Below, one piece after another: positions 8,756 to 37,719 of a stretch of DNA of 64,000 nt. Numbering within the stretch: position 1 is the first letter of the stretch; the number at the start of each line of letters is the position of its first letter. The stretch lies in assembly GCF_016903815.1 (NCBI RefSeq), contig NZ_CP069973.1, one strand, 5' to 3'. The translations under genes and the position numbers were made by a program. The stretch is from Escherichia coli (lineage in GTDB: Bacteria; Pseudomonadota; Gammaproteobacteria; Enterobacterales; Enterobacteriaceae). The notes below the pieces were generated by a model. It had not been told where the DNA came from and made no database searches. It worked only from the letters and a program-made list of their open reading frames with translations.

Positions 8756-9859
8756 ATGAGTGACAGCCAGACGCTGGTGGTAAAACTCGGCACCAGTGTG
8801 CTAACAGGCGGATCGCGCCGCCTGAACCGTGCCCATATTGTTGAACTCGTTCGCCAGTGCGCGCAGTTACATGCCGCCGGGCATCGGATTGTTATTGTGA
8901 CGTCGGGCGCGATTGCCGCCGGACGTGAGCACCTGGGTTACCCAGAACTACCAGCGACTATCGCCTCGAAACAACTGCTGGCGGCGGTAGGGCAGAGTCG
9001 ACTGATTCAACTGTGGGAACAGCTGTTTTCTATTTATGGCATTCACGTCGGGCAAATGCTGCTGACCCGTGCTGATATGGAAGACCGTGAACGCTTCCTG
9101 AACGCCCGCGACACCCTGCGTGCGTTGCTCGATAACAATATCGTTCCGGTAATCAATGAGAACGATGCTGTCGCGACTGCAGAGATTAAGGTCGGCGATA
9201 ACGATAACCTTTCTGCGCTGGCGGCGATTCTGGCGGGTGCCGATAAACTGTTGCTGCTGACCGATCAAAAAGGTTTGTATACCGCTGACCCGCGCAGCAA
9301 TCCGCAGGCAGAACTGATTAAAGATGTTTACGGCATTGATGACGCACTGCGCGCGATTGCTGGCGACAGCGTTTCAGGCCTCGGAACTGGCGGCATGAGT
9401 ACCAAATTGCAGGCCGCGGACGTGGCTTGCCGTGCGGGTATCGACACCATTATTGCCGCGGGCAGCAAGCCGGGCGTTATTGGTGACGTGATGGAAGGCA
9501 TTTCCGTCGGTACGCTGTTCCATGCCCAGGCGACCCCGCTTGAAAACCGTAAACGCTGGATTTTCGGTGCACCACCTGCGGGTGAAATCACGGTAGATGA
9601 AGGGGCAACCGCCGCCATTCTTGAACGCGGCAGCTCCCTGTTGCCGAAAGGTATTAAAAGCGTGACTGGCAACTTCTCGCGTGGTGAAGTGATCCGCATT
9701 TGTAACCTCGAAGGTCGCGATATCGCCCACGGCGTCAGTCGTTACAACAGCGATGCATTACGCCGTATTGCCGGACACCACTCGCAAGAAATAGATGCAA
9801 TACTGGGATATGAATACGGCCCGGTTGCCGTTCACCGTGATGACATGATTACCCGTTAA
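8756..9859 (+). CDS. proB: Glutamate 5-kinase
   Basis: Start set at [14 protein letters not shown] (367 aa); the ORF-track start at 8669 is an over-extension. Confidence 0.9.
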
Positions 9860-9870
9860 GGAGCTGGCCG

Positions 9871-11124
9871 ATGCTGGAACAAATGGGCATTGCCGCGAAG
9901 CAAGCCTCGTATAAATTAGCGCAACTCTCCAGTCGCGAAAAAAATCGCGTGCTGGAAAAAATCGCCGATGAACTGGAAGCACAAAGCGAAATCATCCTCA
10001 ACGCTAACGCCCAGGATGTTGCTGACGCGCGTGCCAATGGCCTTAGCGAAGCGATGCTTGACCGTCTGGCACTGACGCCCGCACGGCTGAAAGGCATTGC
10101 CGATGATGTGCGCCAGGTGTGCAACCTCGCCGATCCGGTGGGGCAGGTGATTGATGGTGGTGTGCTGGACAGCGGTCTGCGTCTGGAGCGTCGTCGCGTA
10201 CCGCTGGGGGTGATTGGCGTGATTTATGAAGCTCGCCCGAACGTGACGGTTGATGTCGCTTCGCTGTGCCTGAAAACCGGTAACGCAGTGATCCTGCGTG
10301 GTGGCAAAGAAACCTGTCGCACTAACGCTGCAACGGTGGCGGTGATTCAGGACGCCCTGAAATCCTGCGATTTACCGGCAGGCGCAGTACAGGCGATTGA
10401 TAATCCTGACCGCGCGCTGGTCAGTGAAATGCTGCGTATGGATAAATACATCGACATGCTGATCCCGCGTGGTGGCGCTGGCCTGCATAAGCTGTGCCGC
10501 GAACAGTCGACAATCCCGGTGATCACAGGCGGTATAGGCGTATGCCATATTTACGTTGATGAAAGTGCAGAGATCGCTGAAGCCCTGAAAGTAATTGTCA
10601 ACGCGAAAACTCAGCGTCCGAGCACATGTAATACGGTAGAAACGTTGCTGGTAAATAAAAACATCGCCGATAGCTTCCTGCCCGCATTAAGCAAGCAAAT
10701 GGCGGAAAGCGGCGTGACATTACACGCAGATGTAGCTGCGCTGGCGCAGTTGCAGGCAGGCCCCGCGAAGGTGGTGGCTGTTAAAGCCGAAGAGTATGAC
10801 GATGAGTTTCTGTCATTAGATTTGAACGTCAAAATCGTCAGCGATCTTGACGATGCCATCGCCCATATTCGTGAACACGGCACACAACACTCCGATGCGA
10901 TCCTGACCCGCGATATGCGCAACGCCCAGCGTTTTGTTAACGAAGTGGATTCGTCCGCTGTTTACGTTAACGCCTCTACGCGTTTTACCGACGGCGGCCA
11001 GTTTGGACTGGGTGCGGAAGTGGCGGTAAGCACACAAAAACTCCACGCGCGTGGCCCAATGGGGCTGGAAGCACTGACCACTTACAAGTGGATCGGCATT
11101 GGTGATTACACCATTCGTGCGTAA
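9871..11124 (+). CDS. proA: Gamma-glutamyl phosphate reductase
   Basis: 417-aa ORF directly downstream of proB. Confidence 0.95.
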
Positions 11125-11238
11125 ATAAAACCGGGTGATGCAAAAGTAGCCATTTGATTCACAAGGCCATTGACGCATCGCCCGGTTAGTTTTAACCTTG
11201 TCCACCGTGATTCACGTTCGTGAACATGTCCTTTCAGG

Positions 11239-11314
11239 GCCGATATAGCTCAGTTGGTAGAGCAGCGCATTCGTAATGCGAAGGTCGGAGGTTCGACTCC
11301 TCTTATCGGCACCA
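11239..11314 (+). tRNA. thrW: tRNA-Thr (CGU anticodon)
   Basis: 76-nt sequence GCCGATATAGCTCAGTTGGTAGAGCAGC…GGTTCGACTCCTCTTATCGGCACCA with cloverleaf features and encoded CCA; position after proA matches thrW. Confidence 0.9.
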
Positions 11315-11328
11315 TTAAAATCAATAAG

Positions 11329-11595
11329 TTACACATCATTAGTACCTTCCTTATTTTTTGACTGGGACAAATTTGGGACCGATGGGTTCAGGACTGAGTC
11401 TATTTGCCGTGCGTGTTCGGTAAGGTGATTAGGCGCGAGGTGAGCATATCGACGAACCATTTCGATAGACTCCCAGCCTCCCATTTCTGAAAATGCAAGA
11501 AGAGAAACACTGGACTGAACCAGCCTGCTTGCCTTTGCTATCAAAGTACCTTGAAGGCCAGATGATTTCTGGCGATATTTACAGCGCTTCCGCAA
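11329..11595 (-). pseudogene. Tyrosine-recombinase (phage integrase) C-terminal remnant
   Basis: ORF ends in …[30 protein letters not shown]…, a typical P4-like integrase C-terminus; the upstream part is degenerate and there is no room for the catalytic core; lies 15 bp from the tRNA 3' end. Confidence 0.7.
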
Positions 11596-11677
11596 TGAGT
11601 TTTTCTCTGTGCCGCCAGAGGCGTTCCCCGCTTTTTCAGCACCGCAATAATGTCGGCGGAATGCCAGTCCTGTTGCA

Positions 11678-12148
11678 TCATGCGGCCACCTCGCTGATAA
11701 ATTTTACGCCGTCGGCGGTACGCAGCCAGCGTGGGGCTTTGAGTCCTTCCGTGAAATACCAGACCAGCTCACACAGCAGCCCGGTCAGGGTTTGCTCCAT
11801 TTTTGGTTCCGCCGGACGTTCCAGCAGAAGCTGGAGTAGTGCGAGGCAGTATTCGCACAAGGAATCAGGTTCGGAAATAAAGTGCTCTGGTGTGGCGGGA
11901 AGGGTATCCACGGTCAGGCTTTCGGTAAGATGCGGTGGGATGGGGTCGTGTAGTGTGGGTTGCAGTAGCGCAAGAGCCGCGTGAAGCCGCCCGCAGAGCG
12001 CCAGTCGTAGCGCTGGATCGTCGGTTTCAATCAGGGTTTCGGCAAAGCGGGCGCAGTAGTCAGCAAGGACAGTGAAATCCGTGGTGGCATTGAAGGGGAC
12101 GGTCAATAGATCGAGTAAATCGCTGTCAGTGGTGAGGATTGTAGCCAT
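11678..12148 (-). CDS. Hypothetical acidic protein (156 aa), unknown function
   Basis: Clean ORF with an AGGAGG-like RBS (ggaggttgcc) just upstream of its ATG; leucine/acidic-rich; no family recognised by eye. Confidence 0.5.
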
Positions 12149-12494
12149 AGGGCAACCTCCGATAAGTGGGTGTTCAAGCCACCACCGGAGAGGCTAATCT
12201 CGCGGGTGGTGGAACCGGGCAGGGTTAGCCTTACCAGCCTTATCGGACACTGGCGCGTCTTGCGACGCCCCCGCCCGGCCCACCATTGAGATGTAACCGT
12301 GCGAACAACACAAAAAAAGACGCTGGCGCGTCATGTGTCGCCGATAAGATTTCTTCAGGAGGCTAATCCCGACGCCTGATTTTGCAGGCGCGGGAGAAAG
12401 ATACTGCGATTGGTCATGAGTGGCAAGGGCTACATCATGTTTACCAACATCTCACGCAAAAATACCCTGATTATTAATAGCGAAAATCAGTTTC

Positions 12495-15400
12495 TTATTT
12501 TGGCGGTAGCTTTTTGCGGTTCTTTGCCAACTGGAATCCTTCAGGTAACGGTTTGAATTTATCGCCGCCTTTAGGCCAGCGTTTTGCCCTGCTCTGAAAT
12601 GCCCTTAACGAGTCGATATCCAGCGTTGCAGCGACCACAAAGTCATTATCACCGCCCTTCACACGAGCAATATCACGCATAAAGGGTTCTTTTGCCGGGG
12701 AACGTACGCGACTATCGCCGTATTTTCGGTTATTCACTAAAATAGTATAGGCATGAATATCCAGCGCTGCTGATTCAATCAACGATGCAAACGTATCTAG
12801 ATCTTTATTCCAGCTCAATACCATTAATGCATCGAGTGCGCCCTGAAAACGGATCCTCGCTTTACTATTCTGGAGTTCAGAGCAAATCATAACGCCAAAA
12901 TTGACGCCGTGATGAATATATACCGGCTTACGTTGTTTAACATTAAGTGTCGAATCCCAAGACTTACCATAAATTGAAAATAATGCCTCATCTTCACCTA
13001 CGGCGGGTTCCAGCTTGGGTTGCCATATTTTGACACTCGCTGGATAGCCGAGTCTGTTATCTGAAAGGACAAGTACGGCCTCACTCTTCAGTTGATTATC
13101 GTCTAAGTGGCGGTATTCTGTTCCCGCAATTAGACTGATACCCGCCGAACTCAAACGATCAGCAATACTGTTAACCCAGCGTAACGGGATTGAAAGCTCA
13201 GGGAATAAAACATAATCAGGTTTAGGAGATAGTTTCAATGTTGCATTAACCAGTTCAGAAATCCGCTGGTACCTTGAACGGGACAAGTTAGATTTATTGC
13301 AGGCCATTTTAGCCCAGTCGTCCTCCTCTGTTTTAATGCTGGTTAGCGCAACGACAACTTTATGTTTCCTGTCTGTGCCAATATGAATGAATTTCTTAGG
13401 CCGAGCTTTTTTTGTCGCTTCATCTGAGTCCTGCTCCGATGCTAGCAACGTCGGTTTGATCCATACTCCGCGTAATGCTTGAGTATATTTTGCCCAAATG
13501 GTGGACGGTCTCTCATCTGGTTTTTTGTCGGATGTGGAGGGTAATCCAACACATTCGGGGGCCAGTTCTGATATTTCAGCGGGTGTTAAAGGACGTGTAG
13601 GGAAAATGTAAGGTAGGTAACTTTCGTTCTTACGATTTCCTTTAGCCACTTTTTCCAGTCGGGTATTCTTGGTTGATTTCAAAAATAGCTTAATAACGTC
13701 AATATCAATAAGCGATGAGTCGCTCATTAATTTCAGTATTTTAACTTCTTTTTTACTATCACGCTGATTAACAAGTTTTTCTGCCGACTGACTCTTTACG
13801 ATCTGTTTATAAGGTTCCTTTGCTAAATCAGCTCGAGCTACCAATGGCGCTTTTAAATAAAAATCTGCTGAATCAAAGCGAAGATCCAGTAAATCCTTTA
13901 GATTCGTCAGACTTTGTGAAATATGATTAAAAAATGTATCCGCAAGGCACTCTTCTTTCTTTGAACGTTTATCAAGAAATAATCTGTCAGGACTGTAATA
14001 TCGTGTCGCTGCATCAACAAATAGCCAGCTTAATGTGCCTTTTATACAGCGCCAAAGATCATTTACTGCTCGAGTTTTGCAACCATTTATATTCACTTCC
14101 TTACCTGAAGTAATCACCGATGCCAACAGGTTGATGGATTCGTAAGCTTTAAGTACAATTTTTTCCGCGTGCTGCCATTCATTCATACTGATAGCAAAGC
14201 CAAGCAGCCTTGGCAGATAACTAAAATGTGCAAATAGATTATCAGCCCTAAGAATATGGTTGTAGGCAAACTGATAAAACTCTTCCCGCTGTTCTTTCCA
14301 TTCACTTGGAGGCAGATCTCGTGCCAGTGTTTCAACGTAGCGTAATTGCAGTGACCAGCCCAAACGACGAATGGTTAATCCATCCGCACGGCGCAGAGTA
14401 TCGGCATTTTCACCTACACTACCGGCAGCGGAAAGGACTTTAGCTGCGGTGGAGTGTTCCAGTTGATCCGGTGAAGGCATCAAGCGGTGTTCACTAGAAA
14501 GCTCGTAGATCTCCTTTTCGATACTGTCGAGCAGGTCTATTCCAGCCCTCCCTTGAAGCACGAAAAGTTTTTGCTTATCGGATTGTAACTGGATGGTGGT
14601 CTTACCCTGGAAATGCTCGCCCTGCTGTATTTGCCATATTTGTTTTTGCTCGTTTTTCAAATAAACGCAATCATTGCCAAGCCTATCTTGCAGCAATAAC
14701 ATAAATTCGTGATTATTAGTAATTGTCCCTGTATCGCGTATTACAAGGAACATATCATCGACATAACGACCGTAGTGAATTGGTGATAGTTTTTCAATGA
14801 CTAATTTATCCCAATGGTGTAGCAATATATTTGAAATGATCCGACTGGCTGTTAATCCAATGACCAGACCACCATTAATAACAGGTGTTTTGTACGCTAT
14901 TTTCTTTCCAAATGCCGCTGCGCCGTCAGACCAGTGCTTTAAGAATACTGCTAACTGTGCAGTAAACGCTTTTTCATCCTCAGTCAGTTTTATGTTTAGT
15001 GTGTTATAGAGATCATCAGAGGTTATAGCCAGTGGATCAATAAAATGATAGTAACTTTTTAAATCCAGTGAGGCGGCGATAATGTCACGATCTTTTTCCA
15101 ACTCGTCACGTATAGCTTTTAAGCCATCACCACGCCATTTTTGGTAGGGCTGGAAGTAGGGGCTAAAAGAACCCACGGCACTGATATGGAATGGATTATC
15201 CTGCTCATTGCTAAATAATTCATCATTACGAATACGCTTTAGCCGCGCGCCATAGCAACAGTTATCTAAGCTGGCATCAAATTTATGCCCGACCATGTTA
15301 ATCCATAGTGCAGAGATAATGTGACTATCAACCGGGAAGTCACCAATAATACGAAACTCTGGTATCAGATCAAAATTATTAAATAAATGGTCGGCTGCTC

Positions 15401-15704
15401 GTTTAGGATTAGAAAAGTGGACGTGTCCATTTTGGGATTCATGTTTTTTCTTTGTGGTTAATTTTTTCGGTAACAAACGAAATTTGCCAATCAACTTCTT
15501 ATTGCTACTGAATCCATCTTCGCTCTGCAAAAGATCTAAGAGTTTTTGCAGGTTTTCAAGTAATTCCTGCTCATACTCGGCAAATTTGATAGCAACAGGA
15601 AATGTATTCTCAAAGAAGCTATCGGCTTTTGCTTTCCGGTAAGCGACCAGAAGGTCTTCAATCGTCAGATCATCCCAGCCAGTGAAAATTGCCTGATATG
15701 TCAT
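12495..15704 (-). CDS. Reverse transcriptase fused to a C-terminal nitrilase (carbon-nitrogen hydrolase) domain; candidate defence-associated RT (UG/DRT-like)
   Basis: 1069-aa ORF. RT motifs: ASLDLKSYYHFID (motif A), GLVIGLTASRIISNIL (motif B-like), YGRYVDDMFLV (YVDD at 14754-14765). C-terminal nitrilase-like triad candidates: FPELSIP (Glu codon 13197-13199), a Lys near VKIWQPK, GVMICSE (Cys codon 12881-12883). Confidence 0.8.
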   Translation of the reverse strand: MTYQAIFTGWDDLTIEDLLVAYRKAKADSFFENTFPVAIKFAEYEQELLENLQKLLDLLQSEDGFSSNKKLIGKFRLLPKKLTTKKKHESQNGHVHFSNPKRAADHLFNNFDLIPEFRIIGDFPVDSHIISALWINMVGHKFDASLDNCCYGARLKRIRNDELFSNEQDNPFHISAVGSFSPYFQPYQKWRGDGLKAIRDELEKDRDIIAASLDLKSYYHFIDPLAITSDDLYNTLNIKLTEDEKAFTAQLAVFLKHWSDGAAAFGKKIAYKTPVINGGLVIGLTASRIISNILLHHWDKLVIEKLSPIHYGRYVDDMFLVIRDTGTITNNHEFMLLLQDRLGNDCVYLKNEQKQIWQIQQGEHFQGKTTIQLQSDKQKLFVLQGRAGIDLLDSIEKEIYELSSEHRLMPSPDQLEHSTAAKVLSAAGSVGENADTLRRADGLTIRRLGWSLQLRYVETLARDLPPSEWKEQREEFYQFAYNHILRADNLFAHFSYLPRLLGFAISMNEWQHAEKIVLKAYESINLLASVITSGKEVNINGCKTRAVNDLWRCIKGTLSWLFVDAATRYYSPDRLFLDKRSKKEECLADTFFNHISQSLTNLKDLLDLRFDSADFYLKAPLVARADLAKEPYKQIVKSQSAEKLVNQRDSKKEVKILKLMSDSSLIDIDVIKLFLKSTKNTRLEKVAKGNRKNESYLPYIFPTRPLTPAEISELAPECVGLPSTSDKKPDERPSTIWAKYTQALRGVWIKPTLLASEQDSDEATKKARPKKFIHIGTDRKHKVVVALTSIKTEEDDWAKMACNKSNLSRSRYQRISELVNATLKLSPKPDYVLFPELSIPLRWVNSIADRLSSAGISLIAGTEYRHLDDNQLKSEAVLVLSDNRLGYPASVKIWQPKLEPAVGEDEALFSIYGKSWDSTLNVKQRKPVYIHHGVNFGVMICSELQNSKARIRFQGALDALMVLSWNKDLDTFASLIESAALDIHAYTILVNNRKYGDSRVRSPAKEPFMRDIARVKGGDNDFVVAATLDIDSLRAFQSRAKRWPKGGDKFKPLPEGFQLAKNRKKLPPK

Positions 15705-15998
15705 GCGTTATCGTCCTTAGATTACAGTCTGTACAGAATTAGCCAGCCGTTTCATGCCCGAAGGGGGGCTCTTGACACCAGTAATCCATCAGTGAGGCTG
15801 GCAATAATTTTGATTTGTATCCATGTTACACGCTCCCCGCAACCAGTCCGAGCATATATTTGTCACATTTTTCCCGAAAGTGATTAAGTTTGAATTTTTT
15901 GTTTAATGTCGATTTTTAGTCGACAAAATGAGGAATAAGTAAACTATTTCTTGCTGTGGCGTATCCCTGAATCTACACTGGTTTAAATATTTGTACTA

Positions 15999-16802
15999 AT
16001 GTCTATTCAGAGGCGACAGTTGCCAAACTATCTAAACTGGCTGATGCAGCACACGCTACCCGGCCAGGTGCTGCTCCAGTCATGGCTTACCCGCAACGGC
16101 ATAGATCGTAAGCTCTCTTATCTCTATGTGAAGAATGGCTGGCTCAGGCGGATCGCTCACGGCGTATACTGCCGGACGGGTCGTGAACCGGATTGGGTGG
16201 ATGCGGTTTACTGCCTGCAATCGCAGTGGGAAAAGCCTGTTCGGGTGGCGGGGCTAACCAGCCTTGCGCTTCAGGGTCATGCGCACTATACCGAACAGGG
16301 TAAGCCGCAGGTCTGGCTCGCGCTTCCGGCTTACGTCAAACTGCCGGGATGGTTTTCTGCCTTTGAACAATCCGCAACATTTGTCACGCTGTATACGTCA
16401 GGCCTTACCGCTGATGTAACGCCATTTACTACGGAACTGAAAATTGGTGACCGGCAGTTAGCGGGCAGTGTCCCGGAACTGGTCGCGTATGAGATCGCTT
16501 GTGGCGTTCCTTCGTTGATCTCGTTCGAACATGCCGATGCTCTGTTTCAGGGGATGAATCTTCTCAGCCCGCGTAAATTGCAGGCGTTACTCTGCGCCAG
16601 TCATTCGGTTAAAACCAACCGGGTGATGCTTTACCTTGCCCGGCGTAATGGACACCCTTATTTTCAGTTTATTGATCAAAGCGGTATAGAAACAGGTACG
16701 GGAAAGCGGCAAATCATACCCGGCGGCTGGCTGGAGCCGGATTATCAAATTACTGTTCCACGCGCATTTAAACCGGAAGGAGTCGAAGATGGATCTGCGT
16801 GA
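15999..16802 (+). CDS. AbiEi-like antitoxin/transcriptional regulator (type IV TA / abortive infection)
   Basis: 267-aa ORF; N-terminal segment (…LYVKNGWLRRIAHGVYCR…) matches the AbiEi wHTH signature; overlaps the next gene by 14 bp. Confidence 0.65.
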   Translation: MSIQRRQLPNYLNWLMQHTLPGQVLLQSWLTRNGIDRKLSYLYVKNGWLRRIAHGVYCRTGREPDWVDAVYCLQSQWEKPVRVAGLTSLALQGHAHYTEQGKPQVWLALPAYVKLPGWFSAFEQSATFVTLYTSGLTADVTPFTTELKIGDRQLAGSVPELVAYEIACGVPSLISFEHADALFQGMNLLSPRKLQALLCASHSVKTNRVMLYLARRNGHPYFQFIDQSGIETGTGKRQIIPGGWLEPDYQITVPRAFKPEGVEDGSA

Positions 16803-17709
16803 TAGCTATGCCCGGCAGGTCAAACTGTTGATGGCCGCTCTGCCGTATGTGGCGAAGGAGTCCTGTTTCGCGTTGAAAGGCGGCACCGCAATCAATTTGT
16901 TTGTGCAGGATTTTCCCCGTCTGTCGGTGGATATTGATCTGGCGTATAAGAGCTTTGCGGATCGCGATACTGATCTGGCGGCTATCAACGACGCTTTGAA
17001 GAGGATTACTGCATCGCTGAACGGCAGACCGGGGATCACCGCGATTCGGCAGGAAAATAAAGCGGATGAAAAGCGCATCATTGTGAATACCGCTGATGCA
17101 AAGATTAAGATCGAGGTTAGCCCGGTCTGGCGCGGGCTGTTGTTGCCTCCGGCAGAAATGCCTGTGTGCGAACGTGTGGAAATGGAGTATGGCTTCACCA
17201 CCATGAGTGTCGTCTCGCTGGCGGATCTTTATGGCGGTAAAATCTGCGCAGCGCTTGATCGTCAGCACCCGCGCGATCTGTTTGATGTGCTGAATATGCT
17301 GGAGAAACCGGGACTGATGCGGGAGATCTTTGACGGTTTTCTTTGTTATCTGGCAGGCCATCCCCGCCCCATTGCCGAGTTGCTGGCCCCAAACTGGGAT
17401 ACAGAGCGGATCACGACGCTGTATGCTCAGGAATTTTCGGGGATGACTCAGCAGGAAACGTCGCTGGAATCGCTGCTGTCAGTAACGACTTTGCTGCCGC
17501 AGGCGTTGAAGTCACATCTTACGGATCTGGATCGCGAGTTCTTGCTCAGTTTTAAGCAAAACAGCCCTGACTGGTCGCGGTATCGCTATCCTGAAATTCA
17601 GCATCTTCCGGCTATTCGCTGGAAGCAACGTAATCTGGCGGTGCTGAAAGATAAAAATCCGGCGAAGTATGTGGCGGCGGTGAATAAGCTAGAGAGGGTG
17701 CTGGCGTAA
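16789..17709 (+). CDS. AbiEii-like nucleotidyltransferase toxin (DUF1814-type)
   Basis: 306-aa ORF with nucleotidyltransferase motif FALKGGTAINLF…RLSVDIDLAY; translationally coupled to the upstream AbiEi-like gene. Confidence 0.7.
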   Translation: MDLRDSYARQVKLLMAALPYVAKESCFALKGGTAINLFVQDFPRLSVDIDLAYKSFADRDTDLAAINDALKRITASLNGRPGITAIRQENKADEKRIIVNTADAKIKIEVSPVWRGLLLPPAEMPVCERVEMEYGFTTMSVVSLADLYGGKICAALDRQHPRDLFDVLNMLEKPGLMREIFDGFLCYLAGHPRPIAELLAPNWDTERITTLYAQEFSGMTQQETSLESLLSVTTLLPQALKSHLTDLDREFLLSFKQNSPDWSRYRYPEIQHLPAIRWKQRNLAVLKDKNPAKYVAAVNKLERVLA

Positions 17710-17821
17710 TCAATAGACCAGCATTAATCACAGATGATTACCAATCAGCCAGAAATGGTTAAATCGTCGAATTCATAATTAATACTTTTTCTTACGCCGC
17801 TGAACAGCTTGAAAAGGATGT

Positions 17822-17933
17822 ATATTTTAAATAGCAGTGAAGTGAACAGTTTATTGCCGTTATTAATAGAGATGGAGGAATAAATACGCGTATTCTACTA
17901 TTGCAACAAAAACAACGATAATGATCAGTTTTC
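17822..17933. repeat. Dispersed ~110-bp repeat, copy A
   Basis: About 88% identical by eye to 37104-37214; shared core …tgaagtgaacagtttattgccgttattaataga…cgtattcta…aaaacaacgata…tcagttt. Confidence 0.75.
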
Positions 17934-18142
17934 ATAATGAAGTAACCTGATAGATATAAAAATGTTGATTGAGGCTAAATGCCCGGATGAAGGTTGTCGA
18001 GGGAGCCAGGTGGTTTTTTCTTTTGGGTGATCTCCATTGCTGGATAGTCCCCTCTTTCTCGCTCAAAGCAGACCCTGGAATTGAACGCAGAGGGACTACC
18101 TGACACAATTTTGCACAGTGAAGAGTCGGTCGTTATTAACGT

Positions 18143-19027
18143 TCAGATTTTCAATGTATCAATGACCATCCGCAGGGCGGGGGAGACGTTGCGATGAGGG
18201 TAATAGAGAAACAATCCCTCCATTCGCAGGCTGTAACGCTGCAACACCCTGATAAGCTTACCGTGTTCTAAATCATCCGCGACCAGTTCAACAGGAACAT
18301 AGGCCAATCCGAGGCCCAGCCGGGCTGCTTCTGCTTCCATATAGCTGTCGGATAAGGCCCATTGCCCTTCAGGGCGATGAGTGATTTTTTTATCATCCTG
18401 ATTGAGTTCCCACTGGTATACGCTGCCGTCGGCAAACTGATAGGCGATACAGGGATGCGCCTTTAAATCCGCCGGGGTTTGCGGAAAACCATAGCGACGA
18501 AAATGTTCCGGAGTCCCCACAATTGCCATCTCCATATCGGGCGTGATGCGTACCGCGACCATACCCTGGCCGACTTCAGGCCCCAGGCGGACACCTGCAT
18601 CGAATCTTTCCTCGATGATATCGACGAACCGGCTCTCATTTATCAGTTCAAGCCGGATATCAGGATATCTCTGTTTAAATACCGCCAGCTTTGGCAGCAG
18701 GCATTTATCAATCGCGTGCTGGCTGGCATTGATACGCACCGTGCCGGAGGGCGTCTCTCGATAGTGCGCCAGCGTGGCAAGCCCAAGATCTAACATTTCA
18801 AATCCAGATGCCGTCTTCTGGTAGAGCTGCTCGCCTGCTTGTGTCAGCGACAGTTTACGCGTGGTGCGCACTAGCAGCTGGACGCCCAGCCTTTCTTCAA
18901 GCTCGCGAACAGAACGGCTGACTCCTGACTGAGCAAGACCCAGCCGCTGAGCCGCTGCGGTAAAGCTGCCTTCCCGCACCACCTGCATAAACAGGTACAG
19001 CTCGTTGTAGTTCTCCCTTTTCGCCAT
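18143..19027 (-). CDS. LysR-family transcriptional regulator
   Basis: 294-aa ORF with LysR N-terminal HTH (FTAAAQRLGLAQSGVSRSV) and substrate-binding domain; divergent from the hydrolase gene. Confidence 0.85.
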   Translation of the reverse strand: MAKRENYNELYLFMQVVREGSFTAAAQRLGLAQSGVSRSVRELEERLGVQLLVRTTRKLSLTQAGEQLYQKTASGFEMLDLGLATLAHYRETPSGTVRINASQHAIDKCLLPKLAVFKQRYPDIRLELINESRFVDIIEERFDAGVRLGPEVGQGMVAVRITPDMEMAIVGTPEHFRRYGFPQTPADLKAHPCIAYQFADGSVYQWELNQDDKKITHRPEGQWALSDSYMEAEAARLGLGLAYVPVELVADDLEHGKLIRVLQRYSLRMEGLFLYYPHRNVSPALRMVIDTLKI

Positions 19028-35981: not shown

Positions 35982-36387
35982 TCAGTCATCTGTGCGCGTT
36001 ACTCTAACTGGCACTCGAACGTCGGCGATGGGGTTACCGGTGGATCAGGCCGTTCCTGTGGCGTAAACGTTTTTATGTCAGTACCAACAGATTTACCACA
36101 TTTATCATCTTAACCGTTTGAGTGTAAATGCAGGCTGCGTCGCAAAGGGAGGAAACTGAGTGGCGTGTTCAGTCTAAAAGAGAGTTGATGCCAGCATACA
36201 GGGCGCACCTGGTCAACAAGTCAACATTAATATAATGGAATATTCGGAGAGAAACGTCAGGCAGTTGACCTTAAATGAACAGGAAGATACATCCCCAGGA
36301 AAATTAATGCTGGTGTAATAAATACACCAACATTAATCCGGTCTGATTATTAATCAGACAAATATCGTTAATTCGTCGAATTTTGAA

Positions 36388-37103: not shown

Positions 37104-37214
37104 ATATTTTTTAATATCACTGAAGTGAACAGTTTATTGCCGTTATTAATAGAAATGGAGAAATAAATAGGCGTATTCTACAATTGCGACAAAAACAACG
37201 ATATTAATCAGTTT
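37104..37214. repeat. Dispersed ~110-bp repeat, copy B
   Basis: About 88% identical by eye to 17822-17933. Confidence 0.75.
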
Positions 37215-37719
37215 ATGACTGATTTGTTGTACTTTATTCTCTTTCATTGGTACTTCCTCGCTTTAAAAAAGAGTGCACTTCGTAAGTGCCCTTATATAAA
37301 TAACGAGTTTGGTCAACCAATTTTTTGACATGTATCACAAATTTGAATAGATGTATTACATCGGCTATCTTTTATTGCCCCAACGTCATTGATATATGTC
37401 GCCTGAAGTCAGTCCGGGAATGAGTCTGATCTCAAAACTGGCCCAGCCCGGGCGTTGATTGGCGCTGAGGAGCATATCGCATCTCATCATAATGTCGTAT
37501 CTCCTGGGGTGTTATACAAGATATCGTTGTTGGTGACCTGGGAGAGGAATTGAGTTCTATTAAACCGTCAACTATGCCGGATACATACTGGATTACACAG
37601 CAGGCACGCCTTACGAGAGAACGTGCCGCAGTGACGAGTTAATTATCTGAAAGAATTTGCGAGGCTGTATCGGTTACTCATTGGTTTAATAGTTTTACTC
37701 TCGGGAGAGTAATAGATAT

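Follow-up and report, generated by a model that had tools for sequence, protein, structure and literature searches.

A probable remnant of a tRNA-targeting defense island at thrW of Escherichia coli, with a reverse transcriptase-nitrilase and an AbiE pair

A defense island that has probably lost its mobility

We analyzed a 64-kb stretch of Escherichia coli DNA (64,000 nucleotides of contig NZ_CP069973.1, which we call the window) and focused on the segment that follows the tRNA-Thr gene thrW. We think it likely that positions 11333..17698 are the immobilized remnant of a tRNA-targeting, "integrase-only" defense island, whose cargo is a reverse transcriptase (RT) fused to a nitrilase and an AbiE pair. 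An earlier note on this DNA, made from the sequence alone, had proposed an accessory island at 11315-18142 beside a decayed integrase, with a "different cargo" from that of the K-12 prophage CP4-6. The content is indeed different. The note left it unidentified; here it corresponds to two anti-phage systems and an RNA switch. The segment does not look excisable: it has no attR, the integrase beside it is cut to 67 codons, and its right end is a microhomology scar.

The integration target, thrW, is a tRNA-Thr (CGT) gene at 11239..11314 on the plus strand (ARAGORN; 71 bits to the Rfam tRNA model). We searched for unoccupied sites with the left and right flanks as the query, and found 127 genomes with thrW and the LysR gene close together. 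In one of these, VCSW7, homology to the window runs up to 11332 and begins again at 17699. The 456 bp between the flanks in VCSW7 are 95.9% identical to the yagP' DNA that follows the CP4-6 attR copy (ptwF) in K-12. Because they match the yagP' fragment beyond attR, VCSW7 has a true unoccupied site. By blastn of the window against VCSW7 and K-12, the left junction is at 11332/11333, and the 18 bp 3' of the tRNA (11315..11332) are common to both strains. Compared to VCSW7, the variable segment is 11333..17698, or 6366 bp. The earlier note was correct about the position at thrW and incorrect about the bounds: 17699..18142, which holds a fragment of ykgR, is also present in VCSW7 and so lies outside of the variable segment. 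The K-12 locus shares only the tRNA and the att core (11239-11332) with the window, which agrees with the note's statement that CP4-6 content is absent.

The segment is not a simple insertion at thrW either, as the note had implied, because the window lacks about 456 bp of yagP' that the empty site has. We compared the right junction across the window, sequence type ST131, Klebsiella, and VCSW7, and found a deletion scar at 17699..17709, with an 11-nt microhomology, TGCTGGCGTAA, that is shared with the empty-site flank. In ST131, abiEii ends with GTGCTGGAGTAA and the sequence diverges after it; the empty site reads AATGCTGGCGTAATCAATAG, and the window reads GTGCTGGCGTAATCAATAG. The last codon of abiEii in the window is a hybrid, with Ala replacing Glu. 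The right end is best explained by a microhomology-mediated deletion, which would have joined the stop region of abiEii to the ykgR' flank; about 456 bp of yagP' would have been lost in the process, as would the right end that the island first had, with any attR.

The earlier note had not found an attR by eye. We searched the 64-kb window for exact repeats, for matches with up to 3 mismatches, and for repeats in general, and we did not find a second copy of the tRNA 3' end. K-12 and ST131, unlike the window, have 45-46-nt thrW repeats as attR.

The note also placed the return of core genes at LysR/pao, which does not hold up. The ykgR'-LysR-hydrolase-MFS block to the right of the island is found in 912 of 5,426 complete E. 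coli genomes (17%), and it is absent from K-12 and ST131. Since the LysR, hydrolase, and MFS genes are themselves accessory, the island is nested in a larger variable interval, from thrW to pao/yagU. In the same 5,426 genomes, the segment is found in 258 (at 80% coverage or above). The note had proposed that the same boundaries in most E. coli genomes, or a base composition like that of the flanks, would speak against an accessory island. Neither was observed: besides the limited distribution, the RT gene has a GC content of 0.418 (0.384 at third codon positions), while proA has 0.546 (0.574 at third codon positions).

An integrase tail that appears to come from another element

Directly after the tRNA, an 88-codon open reading frame (ORF) on the minus strand (11329..11595) holds the peptide that the earlier note quoted as ~90 codons of a P4-type integrase. 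The ORF is of about that length, but integrase sequence makes up just its last 67 codons (11329..11532), and the first 21 come from reading the adjoining pseudogene out of frame. The tail aligns to residues 321-387 of the 387-amino-acid integrase of Shigella phage SfIV, which is of a lambdoid type, with 87% identity (89.6% at the DNA level). RefSeq annotates it as an integrase with a missing N-terminus. The tail retains the tyrosine motif (RRYAHL), and all of the upstream catalytic residues are gone. So, a decayed integrase does lie next to thrW, with only the tyrosine motif left.

However, the integrase is not P4-type. Besides the similarity to SfIV, the only domain of the SfIV integrase is Phage_integrase, while Arm-DNA-bind_3 and Phage_int_M, which P4-type integrases have, are absent from it. 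Also, the tail is transcribed toward the tRNA and the att site, as in lambdoid phages, while P4-type integrases are transcribed away from the tRNA. We also rejected the idea that the tail is from the island's own integrase. Intact relatives of the island's backbone (see below) carry a P4-type integrase and an Integrase_1-family gene near the tRNA, and in the window both of these are deleted. The tail appears to be the leftover of a different element that was fused to the island at about 11532/11533.

On the other side of this deletion junction is a pseudogene of the HTH_35 family (11525..11681, minus strand; phrog_769; "frameshifted" in RefSeq). Three-frame translation against the intact genes of two relatives (L013 and L016) shows a frameshift and an in-frame stop; the N-terminal 22 amino acids and a short C-terminal stretch are still recognizable. 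Judging from the junctions, a deletion on the left would have started just past the HTH_35 gene and run through the N-terminal five-sixths of the integrase of a neighboring SfIV-like prophage, taking out all of this DNA. The island would thereby have become joined to the integrase tail next to thrW.

SfIV/SfV-type serotype-converting prophages also use thrW as their attachment site. Unlike SfIV prophages and CP4-6, the window has no other SfIV or CP4-6 gene. The CP4-6 integrase gene, intF, has no DNA-level relation to anything in the window or in the ST131 island at this site (GI-thrW, discussed below). The att core is all that the integrase pseudogene of ST131 and the window have in common with K-12, and we rejected a kinship of either island with CP4-6.

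A UG5-large RT-nitrilase

The protein encoded by 12495..15704 (minus strand; 1069 amino acids) is a UG5-large RT-nitrilase, which belongs to class 3 of the UG/Abi RTs. The PADLOC profile for these proteins (PDLC03780, RT_UG5-nitrilase) matches residues 1-1068 with 1034.5 bits; the next hits are Drt1a (88.6 bits) and UG34 (44.1 bits). PADLOC's RTasNitrilase profile gives 146.9 bits. We aligned the protein to 36 diverse full-length homologs (30-64% identity). The YVDD box is intact (Y314-V315-D316-D317), with Y314, D316, and D317 invariant across the homologs. The Glu-Lys-Cys triad of the nitrilase (E836, K897, and C941) is intact and invariant as well. The length also fits the homologs (1064-1073 amino acids). 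In the predicted structure from AlphaFold 2 (pLDDT 85.6, pTM 0.89), the C-terminal third is similar to nitrilase-superfamily amidases (E about 1e-7, TM-score about 0.65 when normalized to the target), and the fold of the N-terminal part matches AbiA, DRT9, and the RTs of diversity-generating retroelements. The only sequence relative with a solved structure is DRT1 (9yfd; E = 1e-6 over the nitrilase end).

The family is large, with 858 clusters at 50% identity (E ≤ 1e-30). Full-length homologs with 69-76% identity are found in Salmonella, Citrobacter, Yersinia, Vibrio, Marinobacter, Alteromonas, Idiomarina, and Competibacteraceae. To judge by these sequences, the family is unusually conserved for a defense gene.

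Several related proteins have been characterized. Purified DRT1, DRT5S, and DRT5L synthesize DNA by protein priming and without a template, with the DNA covalently attached to the enzyme (PMC13275509). For DRT1, the DNA adducts keep the protein in a dormant filament, and abortive infection is brought about by the nitrilase as effector (PMC13275509). "DRT11" from Sinorhizobium meliloti, which is a UG5-large protein without a transmembrane partner, defends alone and requires both domains (bioRxiv 10.64898/2025.12.16.694600). By homology, we predict that the RT-nitrilase of the window is a single-gene defense of the abortive-infection type. By analogy to DRT1 and the other purified class 3 proteins, it would synthesize DNA without a template, primed by and covalently attached to itself; the attached DNA would keep it as a dormant oligomer, and infection would free the nitrilase effector. 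Because the gene lacks a transmembrane partner and all of the catalytic residues are present, the same mode of action as in DRT1 and DRT11 is our best guess. An Rfam scan of 11000-18400 found only the tRNA, C4, isrK, and a1b1, and no known noncoding RNA that could be an RT template; in the literature, no noncoding RNA template is reported for class 3 RTs.

DRT11 and the E. coli E101 RT-nitrilase resemble the protein in the window in that each is a single polypeptide of about 1000-1070 amino acids, with a UG/Abi RT (YVDD) at the N-terminus and a nitrilase (Glu-Lys-Cys) at the C-terminus, and each is in a defense hotspot. This likeness is one of architecture. DRT11 has no transmembrane gene, as in the window, while E101 has a transmembrane effector. 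The RT of the window differs from both in that it derives from an array with Type I restriction-modification (R-M) and Kiwa genes (see below). DRT1 of Klebsiella pneumoniae (UG1; 9yfd is a cryo-EM structure) is also a class 3 RT-nitrilase fusion, but it belongs to another UG group, as the bit scores above indicate, and the lengths differ by about 160 amino acids.

Ser404 (codon at about 14493-14495, minus strand) is invariant in the 36 UG5-large proteins and precedes a low-confidence loop of the model (residues 428-440). By comparison to Ser402, the priming residue of DRT1, Ser404 is a candidate priming residue. Ser402 is reported not to be conserved in other class 3 DRTs (PMC13275509).

We did not find a gene for a transmembrane partner: the cargo slot that holds the RT (12428-15795) contains the RT ORF alone. 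We rejected such a partner, as there is no room for it in the slot, and the product of the nearby gene hyp156 is not a membrane protein and is part of the island's arm. A transmembrane partner is not obligatory for the UG5-large family, and an adjoining transmembrane protein was reported for 31 of 299 members (Mestre 2022). In Vibrio anguillarum, a gene for a 588-amino-acid AAA-ATPase with a weakly PtuA/AriA-like N-terminus (L008 5238-7004) overlaps the start of the RT-nitrilase by 4 nt, and this might be a lineage-specific partner of the RT. Genes for AbiEii and AlpA are close by in that locus. In one E. coli carrier, WP9-S17-ESBL-11 (NZ_AP022287.1, hit H170), the RT gene is broken by the IS5-like element ISKpn26.

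The AbiE pair

To the right of the RT, on the plus strand, are abiEi (16020..16802), from a family of type IV antitoxins and transcriptional repressors (PADLOC AbiEi, 257.8 bits; also annotated by RefSeq), and abiEii (16789..17709), from a family of nucleotidyltransferase toxins (PADLOC AbiEii, 385.5 bits; GG(T) and DIDL motifs). The two genes overlap by 14 nt and are bicistronic, with the antitoxin gene first. Their Klebsiella orthologs match AbiEi_3 and AbiEii in Pfam. The overlapping two-gene operon, the profile matches, and the nucleotidyltransferase motifs are as in known AbiE systems; the pair differs from these in the last codon of abiEii, which was changed at the deletion junction. By homology, AbiEii would be a nucleotidyltransferase toxin that is restrained by AbiEi, and AbiEi would also repress the operon. 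The intergenic region 15796..16019, which by arm alignment is common to GI-thrW, presumably carries the abiE promoter. An imperfect 22-nt palindrome (15967..16010; 73% complementary) lies over the start of abiEi and is a candidate for the AbiEi operator.

A cargo slot with alternative occupants

The corresponding island in ST131 (strain EC958) has been published as GI-thrW, and it encodes M.EcoMIII of the Type I R-M system EcoMIII (PMC4659465). The window aligns to ST131 over 9000-12427 (92.8% identity) and 15796-17710 (93.0% identity), and the interior does not align. We will call the interior (12428..15795) the cargo slot. In the window, it contains the RT cassette (3.4 kb), and in ST131 and ETEC6333, it contains hsdR-hsdM-hsdS (6.1 kb in GI-thrW). 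The gene order in both ST131 and ETEC6333 is thrW, int', hyp, C4/isrK, hsdS-hsdM-hsdR, AbiEi, AbiEii. The breakpoints of the slot are at 12427/12428 and 15795/15796, and the left one coincides with the -35 hexamer of a predicted promoter for isrK. On the right, hsdR of ST131 starts 57 nt from the arm.

Outside of the slot, GI-thrW shares the locus, the SfIV-type int' tail, and C4 and isrK with the window, as well as a homolog of hyp156 (93% DNA identity) and the abiE arm (93-96% for AbiEi and AbiEii). The right ends differ. GI-thrW retains an integrase pseudogene and a 46-nt att repeat, followed by yagU, while the window has lost these and continues with ykgR'-LysR-hydrolase-MFS-pao. The repeat is an exact copy of the 3' part of thrW, so that GI-thrW is bounded by two copies, and an int' tail follows each of them. 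The integrase pseudogene of ST131 (L003 19158-20895; 1320 nt, with an internal stop) lies between abiEii and the 46-nt repeat. It points away from the adjoining att copy, and its DNA does not resemble intF.

The RT cassette itself carries a trace of its origin. Just upstream of the RT start, 15715..15765 (minus strand) aligns to the last ~16 codons of kwaB, from the Kiwa system, in a Salmonella locus (L005 6938-6988). In Salmonella and Citrobacter, an RT that is 76% identical to the one in the window ends a tight same-strand array, hsdR-hsdM-hsdS-kwaA-kwaB-RT. The hsdRM genes of this array are 83% identical to those of ST131, and the two cargos thus share part of their history. The two genes directly upstream of the RT in the array encode proteins of 184 and 277 amino acids. 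We considered these as partners of the RT and rejected them, because they are KwaA and KwaB (E = 7.5e-15 and 1.5e-6 in Salmonella), which form a separate Kiwa system. The kwaB stub shows that the cassette was cut from a larger hsdRMS-kwaAB-RT array. The thrW alleles of E. coli look as if each had arisen by a different deletion from a composite R-M/Kiwa/RT island.

Spread by homologous recombination

The RT cassette is present in 260 of the 5,426 genomes. All but one of the copies are at least 99% identical, and there is no diverged copy elsewhere in E. coli. The arms are more common: the left arm is found in 801 genomes and the AbiE arm in 832. Comparison to individual strains reveals a mosaic. 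Between the window and strain 28Eco12, proBA differs at 55 of 2,239 sites (2.5%), 11239..16019 differs at just 1 of 4,781 sites, and the divergence is back to about 2% from abiEi on. In strain N96, the RT is 99.6% identical, while abiEi, at 93.1% identity, is the ST131-type allele. This pattern is the footprint of recent import by homologous recombination, which fits an island without its own integration machinery. Although unable to excise, the island passes from one E. coli lineage to another by homologous recombination, for which the tRNA/proA side and the abiE arm provide the homology.

A C4/isrK RNA switch and its predicted target

The left arm contains a module, all on the minus strand, that resembles a phage immunity switch. 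A C4 antisense RNA, of the type found in P1/P7 immI and P4 CI, is at 12202..12290 (Rfam RF01695, 71.1 bits against a gathering cutoff of 45; full-length match to model positions 1-87). An isrK RNA is at 12313..12391 (RF01394, 68.8 bits; cutoff 50). The a1/b1 target motif at 12352..12404 (RF03163) scores 43.8 bits, just under the cutoff of 46.7. A terminator scan identified an isrK terminator (12332..12319, followed by a run of T), and a consensus scan identified a promoter-like site for isrK (TTGCCA-17-TATCTT, at 12398..12426). Promoter-like matches of this kind are no more common than the chance count for the region. The -35 hexamer of this one abuts the arm/cassette boundary at 12427.

Nucleotides 60-66 and 44-52 of C4 are exactly complementary (7-9 nt) to 12366-12360 and 12348-12341 within the isrK region. 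The same nucleotides are also exactly complementary to 12197-12191 and 12166-12158, which are 3' of C4. We consider these a second, a2/b2-like copy of the C4 targets (12158..12197). The 12166..12158 target overlaps the Shine-Dalgarno sequence (GGAGG) of hyp156 (11678..12148), which encodes 156 amino acids. We predict that C4 blocks translation of hyp156 by pairing over its ribosome-binding site, much as C4 acts on icd/ant in phage P1.

The order of a1/b1, C4, and a2/b2 over a downstream ribosome-binding site is the same as in P1/P7 immI (c4-icd-ant), P4 CI, and isrK of Gifsy-1. In contrast to P1 immI, whose controlled genes are icd and ant, the controlled gene here would be hyp156, for which we detected no similarity to Icd, to Ant, or to an annotated family, and the gene after it is the HTH_35 pseudogene. 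Also, immI is the immunity region of a phage, while the module in the window is in a chromosomal island beside defense cargo.

hyp156 is a conserved backbone gene, with 646 homologs in Enterobacterales, all of which are unannotated. It has no match in Pfam, PHROG, NCBIfam, or PADLOC. Foldseek with the AlphaFold 2 model (pLDDT 83) returned only generic helical bundles (E > 0.03), none of them informative, and tblastn against phages yielded nothing informative (one tiny record). Relatives of hyp156 are encoded in only 2 of 2.9 million viral contigs, and in one of the two, a myovirus-like provirus, the module lies at the end. We rejected the idea that the backbone is a common component of phages or their satellites.

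RefSeq annotates an "ash family protein" at 12194-12367 (minus strand), on top of C4 and isrK; in some database entries, this is fused to hyp156. It is probably an artifact, with a protein predicted over noncoding RNA genes.

Relatives of the island's backbone

In intact relatives, the order of the backbone is tRNA, P4-type integrase, Integrase_1-family gene, EFASI RNA, HTH_35, hyp15x (a relative of hyp156), C4, isrK, and cargo slot. For instance, an island of about 9.9 kb at tRNA-Phe in Klebsiella is bounded by a 16-nt direct repeat of the tRNA end. Its order is TacAT, AbiEii-AbiEi, two unannotated genes, isrK, C4, hyp153, HTH_35, EFASI RNA, the Integrase_1-family gene, P4-type integrase, and tRNA, so it shares the AbiE pair with the window as well. 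An E. coli island at tRNA-Asn has the same backbone, with a Lamassu system beside it. In Citrobacter, a locus with the RT array has a P4-type integrase next to tRNA-Leu. By sequence comparison, the island in the window is a truncated member of this backbone family.

In the intact backbones, the Integrase_1-family gene always has the EFASI RNA (RF02957, 100-119 bits) just upstream (L016/L017 10300-10429; L013/L014 10389-10517; L005 10836-10966), and this RNA is deleted in the window. The slot of the Klebsiella island (L016 6854-8412, between AbiEi and isrK) encodes a DUF4747 protein of 323 amino acids and a protein of 185 amino acids, neither of which matches a PADLOC or NCBIfam profile. In an IMG/VR provirus (L020 2360-7128), the isrK-C4-hyp155 module is at the end of a myovirus-like prophage and is directly preceded by a gene for an EruA-like NACHT antiphage protein (partial, E = 1.8e-155) and a 534-amino-acid ORF with no known function.

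Four of five contexts carry defense genes in or beside the slot: the RT-nitrilase, Type I R-M, the EruA-like NACHT protein, and, at a distance of a few kb, Lamassu. The fifth context is the Klebsiella island with its unannotated pair. More speculatively, and we would not bet on it, the isrK/C4-hyp156 module together with HTH_35, EFASI RNA, and the Integrase_1-family gene may mark out a so far undescribed family, made up of enterobacterial tRNA-targeting islands and prophage modules, in which a P1-like switch lies beside a slot for defense cargo. The RNA switch could detect a phage, resident or incoming, whose C4-type immunity system matches or competes with it, and could thereby control the excision or transfer of the island, or its cargo. 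If such a family exists, then the Klebsiella pair (DUF4747 and the 185-amino-acid protein) is a candidate for a new defense system. This proposal draws on few loci and on a protein without an assigned function.

Integrase-only defense islands at tRNA hotspots are a known general category (Hochhauser 2023). Like the island in the window, they are small, sit at tRNA hotspots, and carry defense systems with no mobility genes beyond integrases. The isrK/C4-hyp156-HTH_35-EFASI backbone is not described in that survey, which reports AbiEii at only three hotspots (Hochhauser 2023).

Alternative explanations

Several observations weigh against our account. The order of the two deletions, and the episode with an SfIV prophage, are reconstructed from the junctions. 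Pfam detects neither domain of the RT-nitrilase, not even CN_hydrolase; because of this, we tested for the domains in other ways (PADLOC and NCBIfam profiles, invariant residues, and predicted structure). There is no sigma-70 promoter with at least 9 of 12 consensus positions on the minus strand of 15705-16019, and the upstream operon partners of the RT are gone, along with their promoter. The window has no transmembrane gene, and for the UG5 system of E. coli E101, a transmembrane partner was reported to be necessary (Mestre 2022, citing Rousset 2022). The original report describes the E101 RT-nitrilase as "associated with a transmembrane effector," with assays at room temperature (Rousset 2022; PMC9122126). 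The RT-nitrilase may be expressed and protective, and its mode of action is our best guess by homology. Similarly, the isrK promoter and the a2/b2 pairing are predictions. Finally, because the 260 copies of the cassette are nearly identical, their intactness says little about selection.

Given these points, the alternative that we take most seriously, although we still consider it unlikely, is that the RT-nitrilase is a non-functional leftover. It would have lost its promoter, and perhaps a partner, when the array was truncated; AbiE would be the sole active module, and the RT would survive because the truncation is recent. The kwaB stub does show that the array was truncated, no convincing promoter lies upstream, the E101 precedent calls for a partner, and copies that are at least 99% identical have had little time to decay, with one of them already disrupted by an insertion sequence (H170). 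But the ORF is full-length, with every invariant catalytic residue, and the block has passed between lineages intact. The start of hsdR in ST131, 57 nt from the same arm, makes it plausible that the arm provides a promoter to the slot. And DRT1 and UG5-large proteins without a transmembrane partner defend alone.

We consider the other two alternatives to be less probable still. Under the first, which is close to the reading in the earlier note, one island was inserted by its own P4-type integrase, which later decayed, and 11315 to about 18142 is generic cargo and the core resumes at LysR/pao. The location at a tRNA 3' end beside an integrase fragment would fit, and the intact backbone relatives do use P4-type integrases. 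We think this is improbable, because the fragment is SfIV-type in sequence and domains, a deletion apparently joined it to the island, the right boundary falls at 17698/17699, the LysR, hydrolase, and MFS genes are in 17% of genomes, and about 456 bp of the site were lost. The last alternative is that the island is still mobilizable, like a satellite, by an SfIV-type helper integrase that acts in trans on thrW-type att sites. In its favor, GI-thrW in ST131 is bounded by thrW and an exact 46-nt repeat, each with an int' tail. SfIV-type integrase sequence is present in about half of E. coli genomes, in many of them as a full-length gene, and ETEC6333 has a tandem prophage at the site. Yet the window has no second att copy at 3 mismatches or fewer, and its right end is a deletion scar. 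The breakpoints of transfer are in the flanks instead of at att, which is the footprint of homologous recombination, and relatives of hyp156 are nearly absent from viral contigs. We consider continued mobilization to be very improbable, and we prefer the immobilized remnant.

Novelty and implications

Every component of the island is of a known kind: a tRNA hotspot island, a UG5-large DRT, AbiE, a C4 switch, and a remnant of an SfIV-type integrase. Its sister island has already been named, as GI-thrW. We searched the literature for ST410/thrW and for RT-nitrilases in E. coli, and did not find an earlier description of the RT-bearing thrW island. What goes beyond the textbook is the exact swap of the RT and R-M cassettes, the stub of kwaB, the spread of an immobile island by recombination, how well the RT is conserved, and the recurrence, in five contexts, of defense or unannotated cargo directly upstream of the isrK promoter.

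The locus provides a base-level example of how defense genes are reshuffled in E. coli, with one thrW scaffold that carries either Type I restriction (in pandemic ST131) or the RT-nitrilase. The RT-nitrilase version is found in about 5% of complete genomes, including many clinical isolates, and it crosses lineages by homologous recombination even though the island no longer excises. It is also a natural UG5-large RT-nitrilase without a transmembrane partner in a genetically tractable host, which is useful given that the literature disagrees about the need for a membrane partner. For phage therapy, the combination of the RT-nitrilase and the AbiE pair is a candidate determinant of host range in these lineages. 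And the conserved C4/isrK-hyp156 module beside the cargo slot poses a small and directly testable question.

Neighboring genes

The truncated ykgR beside the island (17863-17931, minus strand), which is also present in VCSW7, is not the only copy in the window: an intact ykgR lies about 19 kb further on (37146-37247, minus strand). LysR and alpha/beta-hydrolase genes follow each copy, which suggests that these are paralogous or duplicated modules. In the identical RefSeq record (strain 7/2), ykgE (about 54990-55708) and ykgL (about 36128-36353) are annotated as frameshifted pseudogenes.

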